Below are positions 10,447-21,477 of a stretch of DNA of 64,000 nt, piece after piece. The number at the start of each line of letters is the position of its first letter. Position 1 is the first letter of the stretch. The notes beneath the pieces were generated by a model. The model was not told the origin of the DNA. It saw only the letters and a program-made list of their open reading frames with translations, and ran no database searches. Source of the DNA: Candidatus Omnitrophota bacterium (GTDB lineage: Bacteria; Omnitrophota; Gorgyraeia; Gygaellales; Profunditerraquicolaceae); assembly GCA_041651115.1 (NCBI GenBank), contig JBAZJY010000001.1, positions 325,165 to 389,164 of the forward strand. The letters are read 5' to 3'. The translations under genes were made by a program, and so were the position numbers.

Positions 10447-10520
10447 GCGCCTGTAGCTCATAAGGATAGAGCAGCAGTTTCCTAAACTGCGTGCGGCAGG
10501 TTCGATTCCTGCCAGGCGCA
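10447..10520 (+). tRNA. tRNA-Arg (anticodon CCT)
   Basis: Manual cloverleaf: acceptor GCGCCTG/CAGGCGC, D-arm GCTC..GAGC, anticodon stem GCAGT/ACTGC with loop TTCCTAA (CCT), T-arm GCAGG-TTCGATT-CCTGC. 74 nt. Confidence 0.8.
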
Positions 10521-10659: not shown

Positions 10660-11319
10660 ATGTACGATCTGCATACCCATTCTCTCTTGAGTGACGGAGC
10701 GCTGCTCCCTTCTGAAGTAGCCGCGCGTTATCAGAATGCCGGCTTCAAAGTTATTGCCATTTGTGACCACGCCGATTACAGCAATATAGACAATATCGTA
10801 GATTCTATCATTAATTTTAGCCGTAACTGGCCGGCAGGTTCTTTGATCAAGGTCTTGCCCGGCGTAGAATTGACGCATTTGCCGCTTAGCCATTTCCGGC
10901 CGCTGGCAGAATATAGCCGCTCAAAAGGAGTCAAGATCATTGTCGGCCACGGGCAGTCTCCGGTTGAGCCGGTGATCGCCGGAACCAATCGCGCGGCGCT
11001 TGAGGCAGGCATAGATATACTGGCGCACCCCGGTTTGATCACCGACGATGACGTTATGCTTGCAAAGGAAAGAGGGACCTTCCTTGAAATCACCTGCCGC
11101 GGCGGCCACGATAAGGGCAACCGGCATGTTGTAAAACAAGCGCTTAAGTTCGGGGCAAAGCTGGTTATTGATACGGATAGCCATTCACCAAGCGACATTC
11201 CGACATATGAGAAAATGCGCCAGGTGGGCCTTAAGGCAGGGCTTAAATCCGATCAGGTAGACCGTATTTTTAGCGATGTTCGGGAATTCCTTAGAACTAA
11301 GGGGGTAGAGTTATCATGA
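10660..11319 (+). CDS. PHP-domain metal-dependent phosphoesterase
   Basis: MYDLHTHSLLSDGALLPSEV ... ICDHAD ... DTDSHS: PHP (polymerase/histidinol phosphatase) His/Asp motifs. Confidence 0.7.
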   Translation: MYDLHTHSLLSDGALLPSEVAARYQNAGFKVIAICDHADYSNIDNIVDSIINFSRNWPAGSLIKVLPGVELTHLPLSHFRPLAEYSRSKGVKIIVGHGQSPVEPVIAGTNRAALEAGIDILAHPGLITDDDVMLAKERGTFLEITCRGGHDKGNRHVVKQALKFGAKLVIDTDSHSPSDIPTYEKMRQVGLKAGLKSDQVDRIFSDVREFLRTKGVELS

Positions 11320-11774
11320 CGCGTAAAACCTTTCTTGTTGTGGCGTTATTTTGTTTTATTATCGGTTTATTCGGATGTGCCGCGGTTTCGCAAAGGGATA
11401 GGGACACGATAAATCCGGCATTACTTGAGCCGCAGCCAATTGCCAGGTTCAGCGATGTTCCGGTACCGGTAGGCTTTAAGTTTATCCCGCAGGAATCATA
11501 TTCTTTTGAAACATCCGGCGTGCGCATGGGGCTTTTACGCTATCGCGGCAAAGGCAATCCCGACCTGGTCGTAAATTTCTACCGTGAGCAGATGGAAATG
11601 TATAATTGGCGACTGCTTAATGTCGTGGAATACGGCCAGCGCCTGATGAATTTTGACCGCGAAACCGAAACCTGCATTGTTAACATTATGCCAAGGTCCG
11701 GCAGCGTGGAGATCACTATTGCCGTAGGCCCAAAGGCCCAAGGTTCCAAGAAGGCTAAGCCGGTTGTCAAGTAA
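11316..11774 (+). CDS. hypothetical lipoprotein
   Basis: Signal peptide with lipobox (FIIGLFGC). No recognised family. ATGA overlap with the PHP gene. Confidence 0.5.
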   Translation: MTRKTFLVVALFCFIIGLFGCAAVSQRDRDTINPALLEPQPIARFSDVPVPVGFKFIPQESYSFETSGVRMGLLRYRGKGNPDLVVNFYREQMEMYNWRLLNVVEYGQRLMNFDRETETCIVNIMPRSGSVEITIAVGPKAQGSKKAKPVVK

Positions 11775-11988
11775 CTTGAAAAAACCCAGCCAAGTTTTAA
11801 CAACTAAGCAAGCAGCCGAATTCTTCCAGATACATCCGCTTACCATTAACCGCTACGCGCGCGAAGGGAAAATCCCCGCCTTTAAGATCGGCAGCGAATG
11901 GAAATTCCATAAGAAACAGCTTGCCAGATGGATCAAGGACAGGTCGCGCTATAAAATCGCCCGAAACGGCGAACGGCGGTTATTTTAA
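11764..11988 (+). CDS. excisionase-family helix-turn-helix DNA-binding protein (start uncertain: TTG at 11764 or 11776)
   Basis: LTTKQAAEFFQIHPLTINRYAREGKIPAFKIGSEWKF matches the excisionase/MerR-type HTH_17 signature (TIGR01764-like). No ATG start; near-cognate TTG. Confidence 0.6.
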   Translation: MSSNLKKPSQVLTTKQAAEFFQIHPLTINRYAREGKIPAFKIGSEWKFHKKQLARWIKDRSRYKIARNGERRLF

Positions 11989-11998
11989 AAACATTTGA

Positions 11999-12027
11999 TT
12001 GACAAAACACCCAAAGCATAATAAATT
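11999..12027 (+). promoter_or_regulatory. putative sigma-70 promoter upstream of the TonB-receptor / peptide cluster
   Basis: TTGACA (11999-12004), 17-nt spacer, TAAATT (12022-12027). Confidence 0.35.
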
Positions 12028-12124
12028 GATAGTATAGATTTGCCTGCATAGCTTATTGCAACTATACAGCTTACAACTCATCTTCAACTTTGAATCTCTA
12101 CGATTTAGCCTTATTCTCTTACAC

Positions 12125-13960
12125 GTGAAGCTTCTTCGCGCGATATTAATTTCCGGGTTAATCTTTGGTATATACGGCAGCGCACTAGCTGATGAGGTTG
12201 ATCTTGAAAGGATCGTGGTAACGAATAAACGCGCTTCCGGCGGCTTGGATGAGGCAGCGGAAAATATTGCGATTGTTGAAGAAGGGGAAATTGCTGAATT
12301 ACCTGCCAATGACTTGGGGGAGGTTTTAAGCTATGTGCCCGGCATTGATGTTGCGCCGACTAAAGGTTTTGGCAGGGCAAGCAGCCTAAGCATACAGGGC
12401 AGTGATTCCCGGCAGGTCAGGGTAATGATTGACGGTATCCCGTTAAATACCCAGTCTTCAGGACAGGTAAATCCGTCAGAATTTCCCATTGAGAATATTG
12501 CTAAGATTGAAGTGATTAAGGGCCCGGGTTCCAGCGTCTGGGGTTCAGGCCTGGGCGGTGTAATTAATATTATCACCAAAGAGACCGGAAAAACGTTTAT
12601 ACCTAAAGGCCGCGTTATCTCGTCTTATTCCGGCTTTGATACAAAAAGAGAGAGCGCGGAATTATCCGGAAAATTTTCTGGCCTCGGCTATTATCTATTC
12701 TCCAGCTATATGGATTCCGGCGGCAAGGGCTCGAAAAGTGACGTGCTGGAAAAGAAGGCTTTCAGCAAATTGTCGTATGATCTAAAGGCAGGCGGAAAGC
12801 TAACCGCTCTTTTTGGTTACAGCAGCGCTGACGTTAACAGCGGAGAGTTCCCCGGCGGCTCATGGCAGGCGCAGCCATACCGCGATCTTTATGGAAAGCT
12901 GGGGTGGGAAAATACCTTTGGGCCGGCTGACTTTAAAATTGATCTCAAGCATTTCAGAAAAGGCGTTGTTACAAAAGATTATTCTACCGTTTCAGATGAG
13001 GCGCCTTATTCGCGGGTTGACTCGAAAGATTATCTTTACCAGGTAAGCCTTAATTCAAGCCTGCGTCCGCGTAAAGTTGACCTTTTGGTAGCCGGTATGG
13101 ACTTTGACAATGATACTGTAAAATCGAGCCCGTATCTTTCTACGGCTAAGAACTTAAAGATCTACGCGCCGTATATAAACTACAGTTTGAAATTGAAACC
13201 GTGGGACATCAACTTTGGCCTGCGTTATGACAATAACAGTGAATTCGGCAGCGCTACCAGCCCGGCGTTAGGCGCAGTGTATCACTTTGAAAATTTACCG
13301 GGCACCCTGGTCCGGGCAGGGGTTTCGCGCGCGTTTAACGCGCCGCCGTTGCTTTGGAAATTTAATTATAATCCCGGTCTGAGCATTGCCCCGAATCCTG
13401 ATATAAAAGCGGAACGTGCCTGGGTATATGAAGCAGGGTTGGAAAGCCGGGCAATACCGCGGCTTTGGCTCAAGTTTTCACTTTATCGTTCTGATGTCAG
13501 GGACGCAATCAGCAGCGCGCAGAATGATGATAACCTTACCTACATGAAGAACTTCCAAAGGTTCTGCAGGCAGGGCTTGGAACTTGATTCAAGATTTGAG
13601 ATTTGCGACGGCCTGTATTTTCGCGTATCCGCGGCTTTTAACGACATAAAAGATACAGATACCGATCAGATTGTCAGGGGCGGAGGCAAGGCGCGCCAAA
13701 GTTTTAATACTGCCATAGAATATAAATCTAAATTCGGGCTTGCGGTTTCCCTTATCGGCTATTATAACCGCTGGAATGAACCGGCGGATTTCCAGCCCAA
13801 TGACCGCAAAATGCTTTGCGATCTGAAGATTACGCAGGAATGGAAGATGGTTTCCCTGTTCTTTAATGTGCATAATCTGAATAACAGCAGGTATTGGGCT
13901 GATTCTTACTTTCCTGTTCCGCAGAGGTATTTTGAAGGCGGGCTTAGCGTTAACTGGTAG
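12125..13960 (+). CDS. TonB-dependent outer-membrane receptor (small, about 610 aa)
   Basis: Signal peptide VKLLRAILISGLIFGIYGSALA. Plug domain (DEVDLERIVVT, GIDVAPTKGFGRASSLSIQGSDSRQVRVMIDGIPLN, IEVIKGPGSSVWGSGLGGVINIITK). C-terminal barrel ending in an aromatic residue. GTG start chosen (the track's 12056 is a TTG 23 codons upstream). Confidence 0.75.
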   Translation: MKLLRAILISGLIFGIYGSALADEVDLERIVVTNKRASGGLDEAAENIAIVEEGEIAELPANDLGEVLSYVPGIDVAPTKGFGRASSLSIQGSDSRQVRVMIDGIPLNTQSSGQVNPSEFPIENIAKIEVIKGPGSSVWGSGLGGVINIITKETGKTFIPKGRVISSYSGFDTKRESAELSGKFSGLGYYLFSSYMDSGGKGSKSDVLEKKAFSKLSYDLKAGGKLTALFGYSSADVNSGEFPGGSWQAQPYRDLYGKLGWENTFGPADFKIDLKHFRKGVVTKDYSTVSDEAPYSRVDSKDYLYQVSLNSSLRPRKVDLLVAGMDFDNDTVKSSPYLSTAKNLKIYAPYINYSLKLKPWDINFGLRYDNNSEFGSATSPALGAVYHFENLPGTLVRAGVSRAFNAPPLLWKFNYNPGLSIAPNPDIKAERAWVYEAGLESRAIPRLWLKFSLYRSDVRDAISSAQNDDNLTYMKNFQRFCRQGLELDSRFEICDGLYFRVSAAFNDIKDTDTDQIVRGGGKARQSFNTAIEYKSKFGLAVSLIGYYNRWNEPADFQPNDRKMLCDLKITQEWKMVSLFFNVHNLNNSRYWADSYFPVPQRYFEGGLSVNW

Positions 13961-13973
13961 ATAAAGACAAACA

Positions 13974-15557
13974 ATGCTTCGCGCCACAGCCATTTTTCTA
14001 TCAATGATGCTGTCCGTAGCAGTTTTAGAAGCTAAGGAAGTATCGCCGGAAACCAGCCGCTATGGCGGGACCCTGGTTTGGGGCGTTGCCTATAAACCCA
14101 CCATTATTAATCCCATCCTTACTACGCAAAGCGTATCTGCTTCGCTGCAGGGCCTGATTTTTAATGAGCTTATCCGTTTAAATGCAAAAGGCGAAATTGA
14201 ACCGGATTTGGCAGAATCTTGGGAGATTTCCGAAGACGGACTTGTTTATACCTTCCATTTGAGAAAAGGCGTTAAATTTCACGATGGAGTTGAGTGCACC
14301 GCCGAAGACGTAAAATTTACTTTTGATGCAGTAATTGATCCGAAAGTAAACTCGCCTTTTAGATCGTTTTTTAGTCTAGTTGCTGAATTTACGGCAGCTG
14401 ATAAATATACATTTCAGGTAGTTTTGACCAAGCCATCCGCACCGCTTCTTTACCGTTTTATCCGTCCGATAGCTCCCAAGCATATCTTAGGAAATGCCGA
14501 CCCCAAGAACTCGCCGTTTAATTACCGTCCGATCGGCACCGGGCCGTTTAAGTTTAGGGAATGGACAAAAGATGACCAAATTATCCTGGAATATAACCCG
14601 GATTATTATGAGGGCAGGCCGTATCTTGATAAGATCATAGTTAAAACCTATGCTAATTCTCAACAGCTTTGGGCAGCAATTATGCGGCAGGAAGTGGATC
14701 TGGTCCTGTTTATTGAGCGGGAAGATTATGATATTTTAAAAAATGACCCCTTGTTTAGAAATTATGCATATCCAATAGATCATTCGTTTGTTATTTCTTA
14801 TAATCTTAAAGATCCTATTCTGTCAGATTTAACGGTTAGAAAGGCCATAGCTTGCGGTATCAACAGGAAAGAGGTAATAGAAAAAATCTCGTTTGGGCAT
14901 GGAGTTGAGTGCAATGGTCCATTTTACTTTGGGTCGATTGGGTATAATCCGATGGTTAAGCCTTTTGGATTTAATCCGGGAAAAGCCAAGCAATTATTGG
15001 CAGAAGCTGCTTGGCAAGATCTGAATAATGATGGGATATTGGAAAAAGAAGGGCAGGATCTGGAAATTCGGATGCTGGTGGATGAACGTAATGAAATATA
15101 CCGTAAAATGGCCATGTTGTTCCGGCAACAACTTCAGGAAATTGGGATAAAACTTGTTATTTTTTTGTATAATGACGATATGGAACTGACGAAGAGCTTC
15201 TTGGAAAGAAATAAGATCCAGGCGCAATTGAATTTACTTCCAACCCGCGTTGATCCCGATCAAGTTTTTGAAGAATGGACTACCCAGGGGCCAGAAAAAA
15301 TTTATAAATTATGGGAATATGATAACTTTGAAGTTGAGCGGTACTTTTCGCTGGGAAAAGCTACCTTGGATAAAAATAAAAAGCGGTGGATTTATCAGGA
15401 AATTCATAAATTTATCTATGAAGACCAGCCGCTTTATTTTTTATATTTTCCATTTTTTTTCCATTCGGTTTCGTCAAGAATTGACAATACGGATGACTTT
15501 TTTACATTAAACATGCCCTACAATTCAATGCGAAAATGGTTTATTAAACACCAGTAG
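13974..15557 (+). CDS. ABC-transporter substrate-binding protein, family 5 (OppA/DppA/NikA-like); orphan, no cognate permease/ATPase nearby
   Basis: Signal peptide. GGTLVWGVAYKPTIINPIL...LIRLNAKGEIEPDLAESWEISEDGLVYTFHLRKGVKFHDG is typical SBP_bac_5. Confidence 0.8.
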   Translation: MLRATAIFLSMMLSVAVLEAKEVSPETSRYGGTLVWGVAYKPTIINPILTTQSVSASLQGLIFNELIRLNAKGEIEPDLAESWEISEDGLVYTFHLRKGVKFHDGVECTAEDVKFTFDAVIDPKVNSPFRSFFSLVAEFTAADKYTFQVVLTKPSAPLLYRFIRPIAPKHILGNADPKNSPFNYRPIGTGPFKFREWTKDDQIILEYNPDYYEGRPYLDKIIVKTYANSQQLWAAIMRQEVDLVLFIEREDYDILKNDPLFRNYAYPIDHSFVISYNLKDPILSDLTVRKAIACGINRKEVIEKISFGHGVECNGPFYFGSIGYNPMVKPFGFNPGKAKQLLAEAAWQDLNNDGILEKEGQDLEIRMLVDERNEIYRKMAMLFRQQLQEIGIKLVIFLYNDDMELTKSFLERNKIQAQLNLLPTRVDPDQVFEEWTTQGPEKIYKLWEYDNFEVERYFSLGKATLDKNKKRWIYQEIHKFIYEDQPLYFLYFPFFFHSVSSRIDNTDDFFTLNMPYNSMRKWFIKHQ

Positions 15558-15589
15558 TAGAAATCGGAGGAGAAAGGAGGTGAGGGCGA

Positions 15590-15679
15590 ATGGAGGTAAT
15601 CAGATATGGGTCAGATACGGTGATTGGTCCGCGTAGCTGTTGTTTCCCATCAGGGACAATGGGGTTAAGATTGAAATAG
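15590..15679 (+). CDS. unannotated small ORF (29 aa, MEVIRYGSDTVIGPRSCCFPSGTMGLRLK); candidate RiPP precursor peptide
   Basis: Strong SD (gaaAGGAGGTgagggcga-ATG, 8-nt spacing), 33 nt after the SBP stop and 75 nt before the radical-SAM/SPASM gene. Cys-Cys pair. Absent from the six-frame track (<60 aa). Confidence 0.4.
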   Translation: MEVIRYGSDTVIGPRSCCFPSGTMGLRLK

Positions 15680-15695
15680 TTGATAAATAAAGTTT

Positions 15696-15741
15696 CCTTG
15701 CGAGGTAAGGTTCTCATGGAAAAGAAACTTACCTCGCAAGG
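15696..15741 (+). promoter_or_regulatory. 14-bp-stem hairpin (ccttgcgaggtaag / cttacctcgcaagg) between the small ORF and the rSAM gene; putative attenuator/partial terminator. It contains the start of a 13-codon mini-ORF (15716-15757, MEKKLTSQGYFKL) whose TGA overlaps the rSAM ATG
   Basis: Read directly from the sequence. The ATGA overlap at 15754-15757 implies translational coupling. Confidence 0.4.
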
Positions 15742-15753
15742 ATATTTCAAATT

Positions 15754-17127
15754 ATGAAACTCTCACGTTTTAATATTTGGGTTAAGGATTATCCGCAGGC
15801 AGGCGACTATTTGTTATTTAACAGCCGCACGCAGGCGCTGATCCGTATCAGCAGCCAATTTAAAGCTGAACTGGATGCCTTTGTTTCTGGCGCAGCAGCT
15901 GCCAGCTGCGTTCAGGTCAGCCAGAACAGCGCTGCTTTAAGGAAAAATGGAATTATTGTTGAGGATGAGCAAGAAGAACAGGAAAAATTAGATGATTTTT
16001 TCCGGCAGCTCAAACACGAGTCCTGCGGCCTTAGTTTTGAAACCACCATACTCACCACCTATAGTTGCAATTTTAAATGCGTTTATTGCTTTGAGGAGCA
16101 GGTCAAGGAAAATGTTTTTCTTAACGCGGAAACCAGCGGTTTGATCGTTAACTGGCTGATCCACAAAGCCAAAGAAGGTAAATTCAGGACGATTCATCTG
16201 GTTTATTACGGCGGCGAGCCTTTGCTTAATCCGGCTCCGATTTACAATATCTCACGTAAGCTTTTTGCCTGGGCGCAGGATGAAGGCATTAAATTCGGTT
16301 TTTCTATAATTTCCAACGGCAGCCTGATCACTCCGCAATTGGTTGGCCGCTTGCTTAGCGTCGGCCTTAAGGAAATCCGGGTTACTATTGACGGCGACCG
16401 GCAGGCGCATAACCTGAAGCGGCCGTTCCTTGACGGATCCGGGTCGTTTGATGCGATCATCAATAATATAAAAAAAGTAATTGATAAGGTAAACATCGGC
16501 ATTGCCGGAAATTTTGACCGGCAAAGCTTTGCCAGTATTCCCCGTTTATTGGATTATCTGGAGGAAGAGGGGGTACTTTATCAGCTTAGCAGCATTAATT
16601 TTGCGCCGATTGTGCCGCGCTTAGGCCCGAAATCAGATCCCGGGGCAATTGAACTGGTAGAATGCGGCTCTTTTATCGGCAAGGAAGGCATGTTCAAGGA
16701 AACGATCGCTTTGAAAAAAGAATTAATCCGGCGCGGCTTAAAAATCAGCACCGGGCTTGCGGTCAATGCCTGCCCGTTATTCATGCAGAGCGCCGGAGTA
16801 ACCATAGACCCCAAAGGCGTGCTTTACAAATGTAATTCATTGCTTGGCCACCCGGAATTCTCCGTCGGAAACGTGCGCAATAAAGCTTACAATGAAAAAT
16901 CCCGGGAATTCTTTGAACTTGACGCCTGGAAAAAATGCCCTGCTGATTGCGCGTATGTGCCGATGTGCCAGGGCGGCTGCCGGTTCTTTTCTTACGTGGA
17001 AAACGGTAACTTTACCGATCTTTCCTGCAAGCGCGATTACTTTGACTACATAATCCCGGAGCTGATTAAGCTGGAATATGAAAAACTTAAAACTGAGGCC
17101 GTTCCTGCGGCTGCTAAAGCCGTATAA
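15754..17127 (+). CDS. radical SAM / SPASM-domain peptide-modifying enzyme (about 100-aa N-terminal extension, possible RRE)
   Basis: CNFKCVYC (CxxxCxxC) followed by YGGEPLLNP. C-terminal Cys-rich SPASM region (CPLFMQSAG...CNSLLGHP...CPADCAYVPMCQGGCRFF). Confidence 0.85.
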   Translation: MKLSRFNIWVKDYPQAGDYLLFNSRTQALIRISSQFKAELDAFVSGAAAASCVQVSQNSAALRKNGIIVEDEQEEQEKLDDFFRQLKHESCGLSFETTILTTYSCNFKCVYCFEEQVKENVFLNAETSGLIVNWLIHKAKEGKFRTIHLVYYGGEPLLNPAPIYNISRKLFAWAQDEGIKFGFSIISNGSLITPQLVGRLLSVGLKEIRVTIDGDRQAHNLKRPFLDGSGSFDAIINNIKKVIDKVNIGIAGNFDRQSFASIPRLLDYLEEEGVLYQLSSINFAPIVPRLGPKSDPGAIELVECGSFIGKEGMFKETIALKKELIRRGLKISTGLAVNACPLFMQSAGVTIDPKGVLYKCNSLLGHPEFSVGNVRNKAYNEKSREFFELDAWKKCPADCAYVPMCQGGCRFFSYVENGNFTDLSCKRDYFDYIIPELIKLEYEKLKTEAVPAAAKAV

Positions 17128-18838
17128 ACGGCAAATATCCTTTATTTTTTTGTCCATCATCATTGCCAATCTCGCGGGCCTGGTCTTTCCGTGGGTGGTG
17201 AAAATGGTAATTGATGAAATCATTCTTAAAAAAGATTTACGCTTGCTTAACAGCGCAGTAGCCTGGCTGGCCGTTAGTTTCATTGTTAAGGCGATTTTCG
17301 GATTTAGCCGCGAATACCTTGCTTCGCTGACCGGCGAAGGGATCATGGCTGACCTGCGTAACCGGATCTATTGGCACCTGCATCAGCTTTCGGTAAAATA
17401 CGTTGATAATACGCCTGCGGGAAAGATCATTTCCGGCCTCACCGGCGACGTAGAAAGCATAAAGGAATTTATTTCCGGCGGTGCGGTAGATTTCATTTAT
17501 TCTTTTTTTAGCCTCATTTTTGTGGCTGTGATGCTGGTAACGCTTGACTGGAAGCTTGCCTTTATTGCCCTGTTTTACTTGCCGGTATTTGCCGCAGCAT
17601 TCCTGAAGCTTTCTCCCCGCTTAAAAGAAAAACACGCAATAGTAAGGGAGAAATACAGCGAGATGACCTCGCGGATAAGCGAGGTATTGAACGGAATGCG
17701 CGTTGTTGCCGGGTTTTCCGGGGAGAAGAAAGAGACGGATATTTTCAGCGGAAAACAGAAAGAGATATTCAGCGCGGCTATGGGCAGCCATCGGTTAAGC
17801 ATATTTCTTTGGATGACAGCGGAATTTCTAAGTTCGCTGGGTTTAGCCATGCTTGTCTGGTTCGGGGCAAGGCAGGTGATCGCAGGGGATCTTTCCATCG
17901 GGACTTTAATGGCTTTTTATACGTATACCGGGCTGCTTTTTTACCCGGCGATCAGGATGGCGATCATCAATAATTATTATCAGGAAGCCTCTGCTTCAAT
18001 GGACCGGGTAGAGGCAGTATTAGCTACGGAGCCGGGAATAAAGGAGCGATTGCATCCAATCAGGCCTTCGCGAATTGAGGGGAATGTAATTTTTTCAGCA
18101 GTGACTTTTGGTTATGACGTTAACGCGCCCGTGCTTCAAGGCGTTAACCTTAATGTGGCCAAGTCGGAAACCGTGGCCATTGTCGGTAAAAGCGGCAGCG
18201 GCAAGACTACCCTGATAAACCTGCTTCTTAGATTTTACGATCCGGTCCAAGGAGATATTTTTATTGACGGATATAACCTGCGTGACCTGTCGCTTGAGGC
18301 ATACCGTTCGCGGATCGCCCTGGTCATTCAGGACGACTACTTATTCGGCTCCAGCATAAAAGAGAATATTGCTTATGCCAGGCCGGGGAGTTCCGACGAT
18401 GAAATCATCAAGGCGGCAAAACTGGCAAACGCTCATCAGTTTATCGTTGAATTGCCGGACGGCTATGATACCCAGATCGGCGAGCGCGGGATAAAGCTTT
18501 CTTTTGGCCAGCGCCAGAGAATCTCAATTTCCCGGGCGATCTTGCGCGATCCGGTAATACTTATCCTTGATGAAGCCACATCCGGCGTGGATTCCGAGAC
18601 CGAGCGCTTGATCATTGAGGATGCGTTTAAAAAGCTGATGCGGGGCAGGACGACTTTTGTCATTTCTCATCGCCTCAGCGCGTTAAACTACGCTGACAGG
18701 ATCATTTTCATTGAGGCCGGCAGGATAATTGAAACCGGCAGCCACGCCGAGCTTTTAGGAAAAAAGGGCAGTTATTGGAGAATGTGGTTCAGTGCGGAAG
18801 GTTATAAAAATAATGCGTATCAAGAGGCTGCTGGGTAG
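17078..18838 (+). CDS. ABC transporter, fused permease/ATP-binding exporter (MsbA-like); no C39 peptidase domain
   Basis: Six predicted TM helices then Walker A (GKSGSGKTT), signature (LSFGQRQR) and Walker B (ILILDEATS). Overlaps the rSAM gene by 50 nt. Confidence 0.85.
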   Translation: MKNLKLRPFLRLLKPYKRQISFIFLSIIIANLAGLVFPWVVKMVIDEIILKKDLRLLNSAVAWLAVSFIVKAIFGFSREYLASLTGEGIMADLRNRIYWHLHQLSVKYVDNTPAGKIISGLTGDVESIKEFISGGAVDFIYSFFSLIFVAVMLVTLDWKLAFIALFYLPVFAAAFLKLSPRLKEKHAIVREKYSEMTSRISEVLNGMRVVAGFSGEKKETDIFSGKQKEIFSAAMGSHRLSIFLWMTAEFLSSLGLAMLVWFGARQVIAGDLSIGTLMAFYTYTGLLFYPAIRMAIINNYYQEASASMDRVEAVLATEPGIKERLHPIRPSRIEGNVIFSAVTFGYDVNAPVLQGVNLNVAKSETVAIVGKSGSGKTTLINLLLRFYDPVQGDIFIDGYNLRDLSLEAYRSRIALVIQDDYLFGSSIKENIAYARPGSSDDEIIKAAKLANAHQFIVELPDGYDTQIGERGIKLSFGQRQRISISRAILRDPVILILDEATSGVDSETERLIIEDAFKKLMRGRTTFVISHRLSALNYADRIIFIEAGRIIETGSHAELLGKKGSYWRMWFSAEGYKNNAYQEAAG

Positions 18839-20639
18839 GTTCTTACTGAACAACTTTTACCGTAATATCCGGACGCAGATTGCGATCGTTTTGAGCATCG
18901 TGATCACTATCCCGGTTGTATTGCTGGGCGTTTCGCTGATTGATAATTCCCACCGGGCAGTAAAAAAATCCGTTTTGAGTAACCACAAGGAAATCGTTGC
19001 GCGCGCAGCCGAAGAGATCAGCTTGATCTTAAAACGTTCCGAAGACGTTTTAAGCGCGACTGCCGCAATGATCGGCTCGACGCATTTAGGGGCCTGGCAG
19101 CAGGAAACCGTGTTGGTCGGCCTTACGCTTGACAAGCCTGCTTTCATCAGGATAACTTCGTTTGAACTTTCAGGAAAAATGACGGCTACTTCCGACTTGG
19201 GTAAGTTCTTTGTACTTAATTACACCGATAACATAGTACAAAAGCCATTAGCCGGCCAGACCTATATTTCCGAAGTCAGGTTTCAGGATTCCAATCATCT
19301 GCCGTATCTTGGCATGTCTGTTCCGATAAGAGAAAACGGTAAGGTAAAAGGAATACTCGCGGCTGATATTAACCTGAGGAGCCTTTGGGATGTTGTTGAC
19401 GCCATACGCATCGGTACTACTGGCAGGGCATTCCTTGTATCCGGCGACGGTATTGTAATCGCTTCTCCGGACAAGAAGCAGGTCCTGAAGAATGAAAATA
19501 TCCGCTGGCAAAAAGACGTAAATGCCGCGCTCTTCGGTAAAAATGAGGCAGCGGCCTTTATCGATCCTGAAGGGAAAAAATGGATCAGTTCTTATGCGCC
19601 GGTGCCGGATACTGACTGGGGTATTGTCCTGCGGCAAGGAGAAAGGGAAGCGTATTCATTCTCCCGCGTAATGCAGTGGCAGGCATGGCTTATTATAATT
19701 TTCTGCGAGCTTGCAGCGCTCCTGGCGGCAGCATTGCTTTCCCGGCTATTCAGCCGGCCGGTCAGGATGCTGCTTTCACGGCTTAAAAGCGCCGGCAGCA
19801 GCGATTCGGAATATAAGATCGGCATAAAAAGGCACGATGAGCTGGGTGAGTTGATTAAGGTATTTAACGCGCTGGGAGATAAATTAAAGATAGCGCGGGC
19901 AAATGAGAAATTTTCCAGCATCGGCGAGGCAGCAGCCTGGGTAGCGCATGAGCTCAAAAACTCCCTTGCTCCGATAAAATCATTCGTACAGATGCTGCCG
20001 TCCCGCTATACCGACGGAAAGTTCATTGATAAATTCCAGGATATCGTGCCTGAAGAGATCATGCGCTGCGAACGCATGTTAAAAGAACTTTCGGACTTTT
20101 CTTCGTCCGCAGAATTGAAGGCGCGCCGGATCAACCTTAAAGACGTCATTGACGGCGCGTTAAAAACAATGGAAGCCAGGTTTACCGATAGCGGTATTGA
20201 CGTGAGGCTCCAGGCAGATACCACTAATCTTTATATACATGGAGACCATGATAAGCTCAAGCAGGTATTCATTAATTTATTCATTAACGCGCTCGGCGCC
20301 ATGCCGCATGGCGGCAGCATAAACCTGGCAATGCGCATCGCAAGGTCAATCTACGCTAAAGGCGATTTTTTTGTTGAAGTGAATATCGGCGATACGGGCA
20401 CCGGGATCCCCCGGGAGAGGTTGACGACCATATTCGAACCGTTCCGCAGTACCAAAAAAGACGGCATGGGCCTTGGCCTTGCCATAAGCCGCAGGATCAT
20501 TGAGCAGCACGGCGGCGAAGTCCTGGTGGAGAGCCAGCTTGATAAAGGCACGATATTTACAATACGCATTCCCCAGGCTGATCCCGGCGCTAAGGAAACA
20601 CCGGAAATCCCCTCGTTTCCTTCTGTTTTCTCAAGGTAG
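18813..20639 (+). CDS. sensor histidine kinase with periplasmic Cache-like sensor domain, HAMP, HisKA and HATPase_c
   Basis: TM1 IAIVLSIVITIPVVLLGV, about 250-aa periplasmic region, TM2, H-box AAWVAHELKNSLAP, G-boxes GDTGTGIP / GLGLAISRRIIEQHGGEV. The ATG at 18813 overlaps the ABC 3' end. Confidence 0.8.
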   Translation: MRIKRLLGRFLLNNFYRNIRTQIAIVLSIVITIPVVLLGVSLIDNSHRAVKKSVLSNHKEIVARAAEEISLILKRSEDVLSATAAMIGSTHLGAWQQETVLVGLTLDKPAFIRITSFELSGKMTATSDLGKFFVLNYTDNIVQKPLAGQTYISEVRFQDSNHLPYLGMSVPIRENGKVKGILAADINLRSLWDVVDAIRIGTTGRAFLVSGDGIVIASPDKKQVLKNENIRWQKDVNAALFGKNEAAAFIDPEGKKWISSYAPVPDTDWGIVLRQGEREAYSFSRVMQWQAWLIIIFCELAALLAAALLSRLFSRPVRMLLSRLKSAGSSDSEYKIGIKRHDELGELIKVFNALGDKLKIARANEKFSSIGEAAAWVAHELKNSLAPIKSFVQMLPSRYTDGKFIDKFQDIVPEEIMRCERMLKELSDFSSSAELKARRINLKDVIDGALKTMEARFTDSGIDVRLQADTTNLYIHGDHDKLKQVFINLFINALGAMPHGGSINLAMRIARSIYAKGDFFVEVNIGDTGTGIPRERLTTIFEPFRSTKKDGMGLGLAISRRIIEQHGGEVLVESQLDKGTIFTIRIPQADPGAKETPEIPSFPSVFSR

Positions 20640-20736
20640 AATCAGGACAGTAGAAAGTAGATTTAGCCCATTTACAATTCCGGAAAAAATAGTTATATTA
20701 GTTAGGGATACATATAAAATGCAACCGGGAGAAAAT

Positions 20737-21477
20737 ATGCCCTTAAGAGAAACGATCCTGATCGTAGATGATACAGAAAGCATTAGGAAGATATTCGTTA
20801 CGGCGTTTGACGAATACAGAATGATCACCGCGGCAAACGGGCAGGAAGCTTTGAGCATCCTGAATAGGCCTAATGATGTGGGGCTTGTGGTCTTGGATGT
20901 AATGATGCCCGGGATAAACGGCCTGGAACTTTTAAAAGAAATAAAACAGGCAAATCCCCGTTCCAAGGTTGTGATCATGACCGCATATAGCTCCAAGGAC
21001 ATCGCCGTTGAAGCTTTACGCTCAAATGCCGACGATTACATTGAGAAGCCGTTTGACATAGACGAGGTGAAGAAAATGTTTGATCGGCTACTCAAGCAGT
21101 CCGGTTATGGAGAAAGCGCAGGGCGCCCGGTTCAAAATGATAAGATCCAGTTGGCCCAGCGGCTGGTGAGACGGAATTACAACCGGCCGTTTTCCCTGCA
21201 GGATGCCTCAAAAGAGCTTTTTCTAAATTATAAATACCTAAGCCGGATATTCAAAAAGAAAACCGGCAAAGGCTTTAGCCAGTACCGTATGGAATTAAAG
21301 ATCAGCTCTGCAAAACAGATGCTAAGGGACAGCCGCGACAGTATTACCCTGATCGCTTATAAAGTTGGTTATCATAACCCGGATTCCTTCATGAAAATGT
21401 TCAAGCGGGTAACCGGCACAACGCCGTCAGACTTTCGTGCCGGCATCAGTGGCAAGGCTAAAGCCGAAAAAGTATAA
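20737..21477 (+). CDS. response regulator: receiver domain plus AraC-type HTH output
   Basis: ILIVDDTESIRKIF...VVLDVMMPGINGLELLKEIK (REC). C-terminal AraC HTH (ITLIAYKVGYHNPDSFMKMFKRVTGTTPSDFR). Confidence 0.8.
   Translation: MPLRETILIVDDTESIRKIFVTAFDEYRMITAANGQEALSILNRPNDVGLVVLDVMMPGINGLELLKEIKQANPRSKVVIMTAYSSKDIAVEALRSNADDYIEKPFDIDEVKKMFDRLLKQSGYGESAGRPVQNDKIQLAQRLVRRNYNRPFSLQDASKELFLNYKYLSRIFKKKTGKGFSQYRMELKISSAKQMLRDSRDSITLIAYKVGYHNPDSFMKMFKRVTGTTPSDFRAGISGKAKAEKV

Follow-up and report, generated by a model that had tools for sequence, protein, structure and literature searches.

A conserved 29-codon gene beside a radical SAM maturase in Omnitrophota encodes a candidate precursor of a modified Cys-Cys peptide

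Background

In this work we focused on a 29-codon open reading frame (ORF) in a 64,000-nucleotide (nt) stretch of DNA from Candidatus Omnitrophota bacterium (assembly GCA_041651115.1, contig JBAZJY010000001.1), here called the window, to which all positions refer unless a locus is named. The ORF lies between the gene of a periplasmic solute-binding protein (SBP) and that of a radical S-adenosylmethionine (rSAM) enzyme, and an initial annotation, made from the sequence of the window, had read it as a possible substrate peptide of that enzyme. We report that it is a protein-coding gene under purifying selection, kept between the same two neighbours in most orthologous loci and characterized by an invariant pair of adjacent cysteines. 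We consider it probable that it encodes the precursor of a peptide that is made by ribosomes and modified after translation (a RiPP), which would be modified by the rSAM enzyme, exported, taken up again and sensed by the producing cell.

Results

The 29-codon ORF is a conserved protein-coding gene

The initial annotation was exact in the sequence and coordinates of the ORF, in the AGGAGGT Shine-Dalgarno (SD) sequence at 8-nt spacing from its ATG and in its location in the 196-nt gap between the SBP stop codon (15557) and the rSAM start codon (15754). This gap is fully explained by the ORF (90 nt) together with a strong hairpin downstream of it (15690-15747). The window holds a single AGGAGGT-N4-10-ATG site, yet at least one such site is found in 42 of 100 shuffled sequences, so that the SD alone is not significant. 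Its significance is carried by conservation, GGAGG being present 5-11 nt upstream of 49 of the 57 distinct orthologous genes introduced below. The ORF had further been called unannotated, with which the data are consistent: the exact peptide is absent from a collection of 15 billion proteins, in which the adjacent rSAM enzyme of the same contig is present (P0001, from NCBI). The peptide gene was thus left uncalled in all sources of the collection, including the NCBI record that contains the rSAM gene.

Orthologous loci were gathered in two ways. An unbiased set was retrieved through the rSAM protein only and comprises the window and nine further loci (L001, L004, L081, L082, L084, L086, L088, L089 and L090), whose enzymes are 37-77% identical to that of the window. 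The closest rSAM protein, P0002 (77% identity), is not represented among these loci. L001 and L004 were the sole relatives of the right kind among the matches listed in a scan of genome contigs with the generic SPASM/rSAM motifs [VI]PMCQGGC and CNF[RKS]CVYC. A second set was obtained by scanning metagenome contigs with a DNA pattern back-translated from the peptide alone, which matched 58 stretches, 53 of them family members and 5 chance matches. Both sets pooled amount to 57 distinct peptide genes.

All ten rSAM-anchored loci carry an intact small ORF at the same place and in the same orientation, preceded by a strong SD. In the alignment of these ten peptides M1, G7, C17, C18, P20 and G22 are invariant, and E2, I4 and R27 are nearly so. 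The way in which the genes differ is that of coding DNA. Over the 57 distinct genes the entropy at codon positions 1, 2 and 3 is 0.88, 0.81 and 1.47, respectively, and the mean proportion of synonymous differences (pS) is 0.73, against 0.32 for nonsynonymous differences (pN); within the rSAM-anchored set pS exceeds pN in all 45 pairs, and over the pooled genes it does so in 1593 of 1596. The codons of Cys (TGT/TGC), Gly, Pro, Ser and Asp differ synonymously between loci, the peptides differ in length by whole codons, and stop codons break the other five frames in 70-98% of the loci. Where peptide-first loci have enough flanking sequence, the peptide gene is directly preceded by the end of the SBP gene in 44 of 44, and the rSAM gene begins at most 700 nt downstream of it in 41 of 44. 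Two marks of a RiPP precursor gene are thus found here, a short co-oriented ORF kept beside a maturase gene across orthologous clusters, and purifying selection at the protein level, visible in pS/pN and in third-position entropy.

The initial annotation had called for a comparison of orthologous loci for conserved cysteines with synonymous variation around them, and would have given way to gaps without a conserved ORF or with conservation of RNA structure only. In the comparison the Cys pair is invariant, its codons vary synonymously, and the orthologous gaps carry an ORF conserved at the amino-acid level, which favours that reading. Conservation at the RNA level exists beside the ORF, in the separate hairpin after its stop codon, and not in its place.

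The features of the region are listed in Table 1. The sigma-70-like promoter candidate, about 80 nt upstream of the peptide ATG, is weak, the number of such sites in the region being no higher than in shuffled sequences. An antisense ORF of 68 amino acids (15544-15750, minus strand) was rejected, since those frames are closed in most orthologues.

Table 1. Features of the peptide gene and of the surrounding gene island
Feature	Position	Strand	Remarks
Small HTH_17 DNA-binding protein, 74 amino acids	11764..11988	+	PF12728, 6e-15; upstream edge of the island
TonB-dependent outer-membrane receptor, CirA/BtuB-like	12056..13960	+	Plug and TonB_dep_Rec_b-barrel; PDB CirA, BtuB, 1e-22
Periplasmic family-5 SBP	13974..15557	+	PF00496, 1.7e-88; Sec signal peptide, no lipobox
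Sigma-70-like promoter candidate TTGACA-16-TACATT	15481..15508	+	Consensus scan, 10/12 matches; inside the 3' end of the SBP gene
Shine-Dalgarno sequence AGGAGGT	15575..15581	+	8-nt spacer to ATG 15590; GGAGG kept in orthologues
Precursor peptide gene (candidate) MEVIRYGSDTVIGPRSCCFPSGTMGLRLK	15590..15679	+	29 codons and stop; ATG 15590, TAG 15677-15679
Cys17-Cys18 codons TGT TGT	15638..15643	+	Invariant; proposed modification site
Stable stem-loop	15690..15747	+	15-bp perfect core stem 15695-15709/15728-15742; then ATATTTCAAATT, weak U-tract
Peptide maturase (putative), RRE-rSAM-SPASM, 457 amino acids	15754..17127	+	Pfam Radical_SAM; TIGR04280, 318.6 bits
MsbA-type ABC exporter, fused transmembrane and nucleotide-binding domains	17078..18838	+	ABC_membrane and ABC_tran; start codon uncertain
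Sensor histidine kinase	18792..20639	+	Periplasmic dCache_1, HAMP, HisKA, HATPase; position conserved in orthologous loci
Response regulator, AraC-type HTH output	20500..21477	+	Response_reg and HTH_18; start codon uncertain

The adjacent enzyme resembles maturases of Cys-containing peptides

The rSAM motif CX3CX2C of the neighbouring enzyme (C105/C109/C112) is invariant in 17 homologues of 54-77% identity, as are C340, C360, C395, C399, C405, C409 and C425 of the SPASM domain, with C304 conserved in at least 90%. The enzyme thus combines the rSAM motif with the full C-terminal Cys set for two auxiliary [4Fe-4S] clusters. In NCBIfam it matches best with families of peptide maturases, the majority of which have substrates that contain Cys: TIGR04280 (318.6 bits) is followed by CefB (184), TIGR04463 (168), PapB (129) and SCIFF (87), while the families of cyclophane formers score just 49-62 bits.

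An AlphaFold2 model of the enzyme (pLDDT 81, pTM 0.82) predicts with confidence an N-terminal domain of three strands and three helices (residues 1-88), which has the topology of a RiPP recognition element (RRE). The thioether-forming SCIFF maturase CteB, which contains an RRE, is the best solved structure by sequence (5wgg, 1.2e-17; identity 17-18%) and also the best fold match, over the full length, in a Foldseek search (5why/5wgg, TM-score 0.63-0.71), followed by TigE, anSME, ChlB and SuiB. From the modelled domain and the full-length CteB match we conclude that the enzyme carries a predicted RRE-like leader-binding domain.

The reading of the peptide as a candidate rSAM substrate is supported by the conserved Cys pair and by this RRE-rSAM-SPASM neighbour, whose nearest families and nearest fold act on Cys-containing peptides. 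Within the peptide we propose a leader at about residues 1-15, with the conserved pattern ME[VI]IxxG[ST][DE]x[VIL], and a core CC[FYW]PxG[ST]xGxR.

A stable hairpin follows the peptide gene

The window hairpin has a folding energy of -31.7 kcal/mol (z -7.4), and none of 200 shuffled sequences is as stable. Orthologous loci have a stable hairpin at the equivalent position (median -29.5 kcal/mol; z < -2 in 44 of 57). Twenty-six of the 57 distinct loci share an invariant 8-nt loop, GCGGCCGA, on a covarying stem, which is 96.7% paired and shows compensatory changes in 5 of the 6 pairs of its 6-bp inner stem, a result reached by none of 500 shuffles. Often an outer CTTGCAG...CTGCAAG stem encloses this hairpin. 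In the 23 fetched loci with the extended motif TGGGCGGCCGACCA (e.g. L001:5925-5965 and L086:5917-5958) there is one copy per locus, always between the peptide and rSAM genes; the extended motif is absent from the window, where the hairpin has a different interior. The GCGGCCGA loop is more conserved than the flanking coding sequence, which suggests a specific recognition site for a protein or an RNase, beyond the role of a terminator. A search of Rfam gave no family in the window gap, with nothing there except miRNA-like hairpin noise far below threshold, and no match for the hairpins of 10 orthologous loci. The only Rfam match above the gathering threshold in the 64-kb window is a single tRNA gene (10447-10520), which lies about 1.2 kb upstream of the gene island, between a phosphoribosyltransferase gene and a PHP-domain gene.

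In the second of two peptide subfamilies (B, see below) the hairpin is followed by a U-run and is therefore an intrinsic terminator. In general we propose for it the role of a leaky terminator or of an mRNA-stabilizing hairpin. As in other RiPP and bacteriocin operons, it would be expected to give a stable and abundant precursor mRNA with partial read-through. Before the start codon of the rSAM gene the sole SD-like sequence is AAGGA, some 12 nt away (region 15728-15756), and it falls within the 3' arm of the 15-bp hairpin stem, so that translation of the maturase may be limited by the very structure that ends the precursor transcript.

The peptide gene lies in an island of transport and regulatory genes

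The peptide and rSAM genes belong to an island (11764-21477) with housekeeping genes on both sides. Its order, namely HTH_17 (helix-turn-helix) protein, TonB-dependent receptor, SBP, peptide, rSAM enzyme, ATP-binding cassette (ABC) exporter, histidine kinase and response regulator, is conserved across the loci of the family. The TonB receptor is conserved in orthologous loci, and the AraC-type response regulator in L081, L084, L086, L088 and L090. In L093, L100, L110 and L146 the TonB receptor gene follows the kinase gene instead of preceding the SBP gene, the gene set thus surviving rearrangement. The true start of the window receptor is probably downstream of the TTG at 12056, a segment resembling a signal peptide beginning about 33 codons into the ORF. 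The listed ORFs of the exporter, kinase and regulator overlap their upstream neighbours by 47-140 nt (17078-17127, 18792-18838 and 20500-20639), so that their real start codons are probably further downstream as well.

The nearest PDB entries of the SBP are 8efz, AppA and proteins of the NikZ and DppA types, and NikA and the staphylopine-binding CntA are among its best NCBIfam matches. The island has no gene for an importer permease or ATPase. The ABC exporter lacks a C39 peptidase domain, its alignments starting at about residue 130-175 of peptidase-containing exporter models, and it is found in 21 of the 24 loci with enough flanking sequence; in L106, L110 and L122 the kinase match comes directly after the rSAM gene with no ABC exporter match between them. 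A Pfam search of every ORF gave no other maturase-type gene in the island; profiles specific for MbnB and MbnC were not searched separately.

The gene directly before that of the TonB receptor usually encodes a second regulator, either a sigma-54-dependent or an HTH_17 response regulator (L086:668-2035, L088:725-2140, L090:617-2014, L082:919-1545 and L089:1779-2381). The HTH_17 response regulators of L082 and L089 occupy the place of the window HTH_17 protein, and in many loci a response regulator gene of the sigma-54 type ends just upstream of the receptor gene. L090 holds an rpoN-like gene inside the cluster (11199-12587). By eye, no shared Fur, Zur, NikR or sigma-54 motif was seen upstream of the TonB receptor genes.

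Two peptide subfamilies and an orphan lineage

The family divides into two subfamilies, which track the divergence of the enzyme. Peptides of subfamily A (CC[FY]PxG[TS]xGxR) are paired with rSAM enzymes 53-68% identical to that of the window, and those of subfamily B (CCWPPG[ST]E...PE) with enzymes of 36-39% identity. The family is hardly represented in existing resources. No Pfam or NCBIfam model matches the peptide, and a full HMMER scan of 1.84 billion representative proteins, with a 30-residue query made of an Arg and the peptide, gave two genuine called relatives only; family members of 31 residues or less were not found as called genes in the protein collections. The top match of the exhaustive protein search, P0131, was discarded: it is a highly repetitive protein of 650 residues with ten matching stretches (…GSDVRPGVVWRRLGTGADFVAGAALCCLPRGRMY…) and looks like the artefact of a translated repeat.

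One lineage has an orphan pair of a family-5 SBP gene and a peptide gene encoding MEIIKQGTNDIINATIPGCCWPPGTEVQENPN (L143:3250-5142 and L114:38-733, oriented; also L091). A strong terminator and convergent housekeeping genes come after the pair, and genes for an rSAM enzyme, an exporter, a TonB receptor or a kinase are missing from the vicinity. This lineage indicates that the link between SBP and peptide is tighter than that between peptide and rSAM enzyme. The peptides of the orphan pairs could be matured in trans.

Comparison with the geopeptide system

The family closest to the window enzyme is that of the geopeptide system, defined in NCBIfam by TIGR04229 for the peptide (22 positions, cutoff 30 bits) and TIGR04280 for the maturase (cutoff 400 bits). 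The latter family is a large one: it counts 1742 proteins at E <= 1e-40, and NCBI gives many of them the name 'geopeptide radical SAM maturase'. Our literature search found no experimental paper on this system, which is defined bioinformatically, nor on the Omnitrophota family. The window enzyme is homologous to these maturases over its full length and has TIGR04280 as its best family, but it scores below the cutoff. L003 and L002, distant rSAM relatives at 31-32% identity to the window enzyme, are true members (517 and 526 bits). The window peptide and one peptide of subfamily B do not match TIGR04229 even at E <= 10. Peptides from TIGR04280-positive loci themselves reach 11-13.5 bits on TIGR04229, below its cutoff, and the curated model seems to be too strict for a large part of the family that it stands for.

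Four loci with geopeptide maturases were examined (L149:1-6332, L150:1-7664, L151:1-7062 and L003:201-8102). L149, L151 and L003 encode a TonB receptor, a 33-38-residue peptide with a CC pair and the rSAM enzyme, and the peptides found at such loci are MQEQIIVLDQGMDEAKVAIMGTCCVGKPSTPATAAPTK, MEREEIIILDEGIDLREVGPDGPCCSTTTAPIR and MAKKRVIVLDQGVTRKRVAATMACCPSGSPRVTVIEEE. L150 has the TonB receptor and the rSAM enzyme; no recognizable CC peptide was found beside the rSAM gene in L150 and in L002, both true geopeptide maturase loci. An SBP is encoded beside a histidine kinase, assigned to PF04392 by Pfam in L149-L151 and called TrpX-like by NCBIfam only in L003, and L150 and L151 contain genes of the major facilitator superfamily (MFS), putatively exporters.

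Both clusters thus combine a TonB receptor, a permease-less SBP, a kinase, an exporter, a CC peptide and an rSAM enzyme. In both families a peptide of about 30-38 residues is encoded directly upstream of the rSAM enzyme, its gene is followed by a hairpin, and the peptide has a hydrophobic strand, then Gly and Asp, then the invariant CC some 10-12 residues on. In an hhalign comparison the two peptide profiles align at G-x-D...CC...P with a probability of 43% (P 2.5e-4), which is suggestive only. The families differ in the core, which is CC[FYW]PxG[ST] in the window family and CC followed by variable residues in the geopeptide type, so that CC is the sole core motif in common. They also differ in the SBP (family 5, PF00496, versus PF04392), in the exporter (ABC versus MFS), in the kinase, that of the window having its own dCache sensor, and in their hosts, Omnitrophota versus Desulfobacterota or Nitrospirota. 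Since the enzyme is homologous and the functional logic the same, with non-orthologous SBP and exporter, we regard the window system, as judged from sequence comparison, as a probable sister family of the uncharacterized geopeptide system in which these two parts would have been replaced.

Discussion

We propose that the ORF would be translated as a RiPP precursor, the conserved N-terminal leader of which would dock on the RRE-like domain of the adjacent enzyme. The enzyme would then modify the core around Cys-Cys-aromatic-Pro-x-Gly-Ser/Thr, the likeliest change being one or two intramolecular Cys thioether cross-links, as in ranthipeptides and sactipeptides. Behind the stop codon, the hairpin would keep the precursor transcript short, stable and abundant and allow partial read-through to the genes of maturase and exporter. 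Once modified, the peptide would be pumped into the periplasm by the MsbA-type exporter and leave the cell, the TonB-dependent receptor would take it back across the outer membrane, the permease-less SBP would capture it in the periplasm, and the dCache kinase with its AraC-type response regulator would report the captured peptide.

As a whole we hold this explanation to be probable, with unequal strength in its parts. The peptide is very probably the substrate of the rSAM enzyme, its conserved N-terminal segment serving as the RRE-bound leader. For thioether chemistry centred on the CC pair, suggested by the relatives of the enzyme, the chances are about even; some other modification is rather unlikely, and a C-C bond with the variable aromatic residue that follows the pair is a still poorer prospect. 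That the peptide follows the route of export, TonB re-entry, SBP capture and reporting by the kinase and regulator seems somewhat likely. As to purpose, a self-produced extracellular signal is our tentative preference, at a little under even chances, and a purpose other than signal or metallophore is not likely. The permease-less SBP of both families, and its position beside the kinase gene in the geopeptide loci, tilt the balance slightly towards periplasmic sensing over nutrient import.

Several observations weigh against this proposal. The island encodes no leader protease or C39 peptidase domain and no outer-membrane export component, and the exporter is missing from 3 of the 24 loci. The orphan lineage (L143, L114 and L091) keeps SBP and peptide without the rSAM enzyme, exporter and kinase. 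Inspection by eye of the regions upstream of the TonB receptor genes showed no metal-regulator box. A cyclophane-type C-C cross-link would likewise suit the variable aromatic residue next to CC. The search pattern enforces ME[IV][IV]xxG and CC[FYW]PxG[ST], so that invariance there is by construction in the 53 metagenome peptides; only the ten rSAM-anchored loci are unbiased, and the same invariants are found in them. All source organisms are uncultured and represented by metagenome-assembled genomes, from the sequences of which translation and modification of the peptide are predicted.

The simplest alternative would be that there is no gene, the frame being a matter of chance and the conservation one of RNA structure only. 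An ORF of just 29 codons, an SD-ATG site that is not improbable by chance in 64 kb and a conserved RNA hairpin nearby are what such an explanation would build on. Yet the frame is open in all 63 loci with a third-position and synonymous pattern typical of coding DNA, the hairpin lies outside the ORF, whose own region folds weakly, Rfam has no match, and the ten rSAM-anchored loci argue against an artefact of the search pattern; the codon analysis rules out both a frame open by chance and an element conserved as RNA only. The ORF might instead be translated as an upstream leader, in which ribosomes stalling at the tandem Cys codons would sense Cys-tRNA and control the hairpin and rSAM expression, like trp or his attenuation. 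The invariance of these codons, the strong hairpin between ORF and rSAM gene in orthologous loci and the AAGGA in its 3' arm before the rSAM ATG in the window would suit this idea. However, amino-acid conservation extends beyond CC over the whole peptide, and the geometry is wrong for stalling, as the Cys codons are 33-40 nt before the stop codon and the start of the hairpin is about 8-45 nt beyond it. A fold of 201 nt gives no alternative pairing involving the ORF, the orphan lineage keeps the peptide gene with no downstream gene to regulate, and a maturase bearing an RRE needs a peptide substrate, for which the cluster offers no other candidate. We therefore consider attenuation highly improbable.

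A genuine peptide could also serve in its unmodified form, for instance by binding or partnering the adjacent SBP, with the rSAM enzyme acting elsewhere. The adjacency of SBP and peptide (44 of 44 loci) is indeed tighter than that of peptide and rSAM enzyme (41 of 44), and the orphan lineage has the pair without the enzyme. Against this, the peptide has no signal peptide and would depend on the exporter for access to a periplasmic SBP, the enzyme carries an RRE-like domain for leader binding and has peptide maturases as closest relatives, the two peptide subfamilies co-vary with it (CCWPPG with the 36-39% enzymes, CCFPxG with the 53-68% enzymes), and maturation in trans could account for the orphan pairs; unmodified use is thus improbable. 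A more serious competitor, doubtful in our view, accepts the modified and secreted peptide and makes it a thiol or thioether metallophore like methanobactin, which would bind a thiophilic metal in short supply where the habitat is sulfidic and anoxic (Cu, Ni, Zn or Co) and be brought back by the TonB receptor to the NikA/CntA-like SBP. The gene set mirrors MbnT/MbnE/MbnA/MbnM (PMC7558416), the best NCBIfam matches of the SBP include NikA and CntA, and the Cys pair is invariant. On the other side, Fur, Zur or NikR-like boxes were not seen upstream of the TonB receptors in an inspection by eye only, regulation is by a dCache kinase and an AraC-type regulator, an inner-membrane importer is missing, the thiols would be consumed if the enzyme forms thioethers, and the SBP of the geopeptide loci belongs to the unrelated family PF04392 and stands beside the kinase, more like a co-sensor.

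Parts of the proposed RiPP system recall known ones. Peptide-pheromone circuits use dedicated OppA-like binding proteins and adjacent kinase/regulator pairs, including the RaS-RiPPs of streptococci, which are modified by rSAM enzymes and regulated by quorum sensing. As in these, precursor, modifying enzyme, ABC exporter and kinase/regulator pair are encoded together, and a family-5 SBP could act as the peptide receptor, but the known circuits are found in monoderm bacteria and have no outer-membrane step. We know of no precedent for a circuit of this kind with a TonB receptor. With the SCIFF peptides (CteA/CteB), ranthipeptides and sactipeptides the system shares the RRE-rSAM-SPASM architecture and a short Cys-containing precursor encoded beside the enzyme. 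SCIFF peptides differ in having six Cys in a C-terminal motif where the window peptide has two adjacent ones, and their clusters have no TonB receptor, SBP and kinase set; the window enzyme reaches 87 bits on TIGR03974, of which the cutoff is 425, and the window pair thus falls outside SCIFF (TIGR03973/TIGR03974).

In transport logic the methanobactin operon appears, by analogy, to be the nearest characterized counterpart. It comprises the precursor MbnA, the TonB transporter MbnT, the OppA-like MbnE, for which no permease is known, and the exporter MbnM, and the route out across the outer membrane is unknown there as well (PMC7558416). Both systems have a short ribosomal precursor in which cysteines are essential, an inner-membrane exporter, a TonB receptor dedicated to re-uptake and a family-5 SBP for which no permease is known. 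The window system, however, has an rSAM/SPASM maturase and not MbnBC, which places it outside the methanobactins, and a two-component system in place of an extracytoplasmic function sigma factor. The peptides have no sequence relationship.

Conclusions

The peptide family comprises at least 57 distinct sequences and is almost invisible in protein databases. It is also an example of how gene callers systematically overlook genes of less than 30 codons beside RiPP maturases. It is an unnamed family in Omnitrophota, an uncurated variant of a kind that is known bioinformatically and uncharacterized experimentally, and not categorically new. It offers a substrate to a large clade of enzymes annotated as 'SPASM domain-containing protein' in the Omnitrophota, an uncultured phylum of which little natural-product chemistry is known, and links this clade to the equally uncharacterized geopeptide system.

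The constant presence of a TonB receptor, a permease-less SBP and a two-component system leads to a testable proposal, that of a modified peptide secreted, recaptured and sensed in anoxic habitats as a signal or as a metallophore. A possible, if unlikely, form of it is a peptide-signalling circuit for a cell with two membranes, in which a modified CC peptide would be exported, reimported through TonB and sensed by a permease-less SBP and a histidine kinase. If true, the same design, built from non-orthologous parts, would be found again among Desulfobacterota and Nitrospirota, in their large and uncharacterized geopeptide family, and would point to widespread, unrecognized communication, or sensing of a shared secreted product, among anaerobes.

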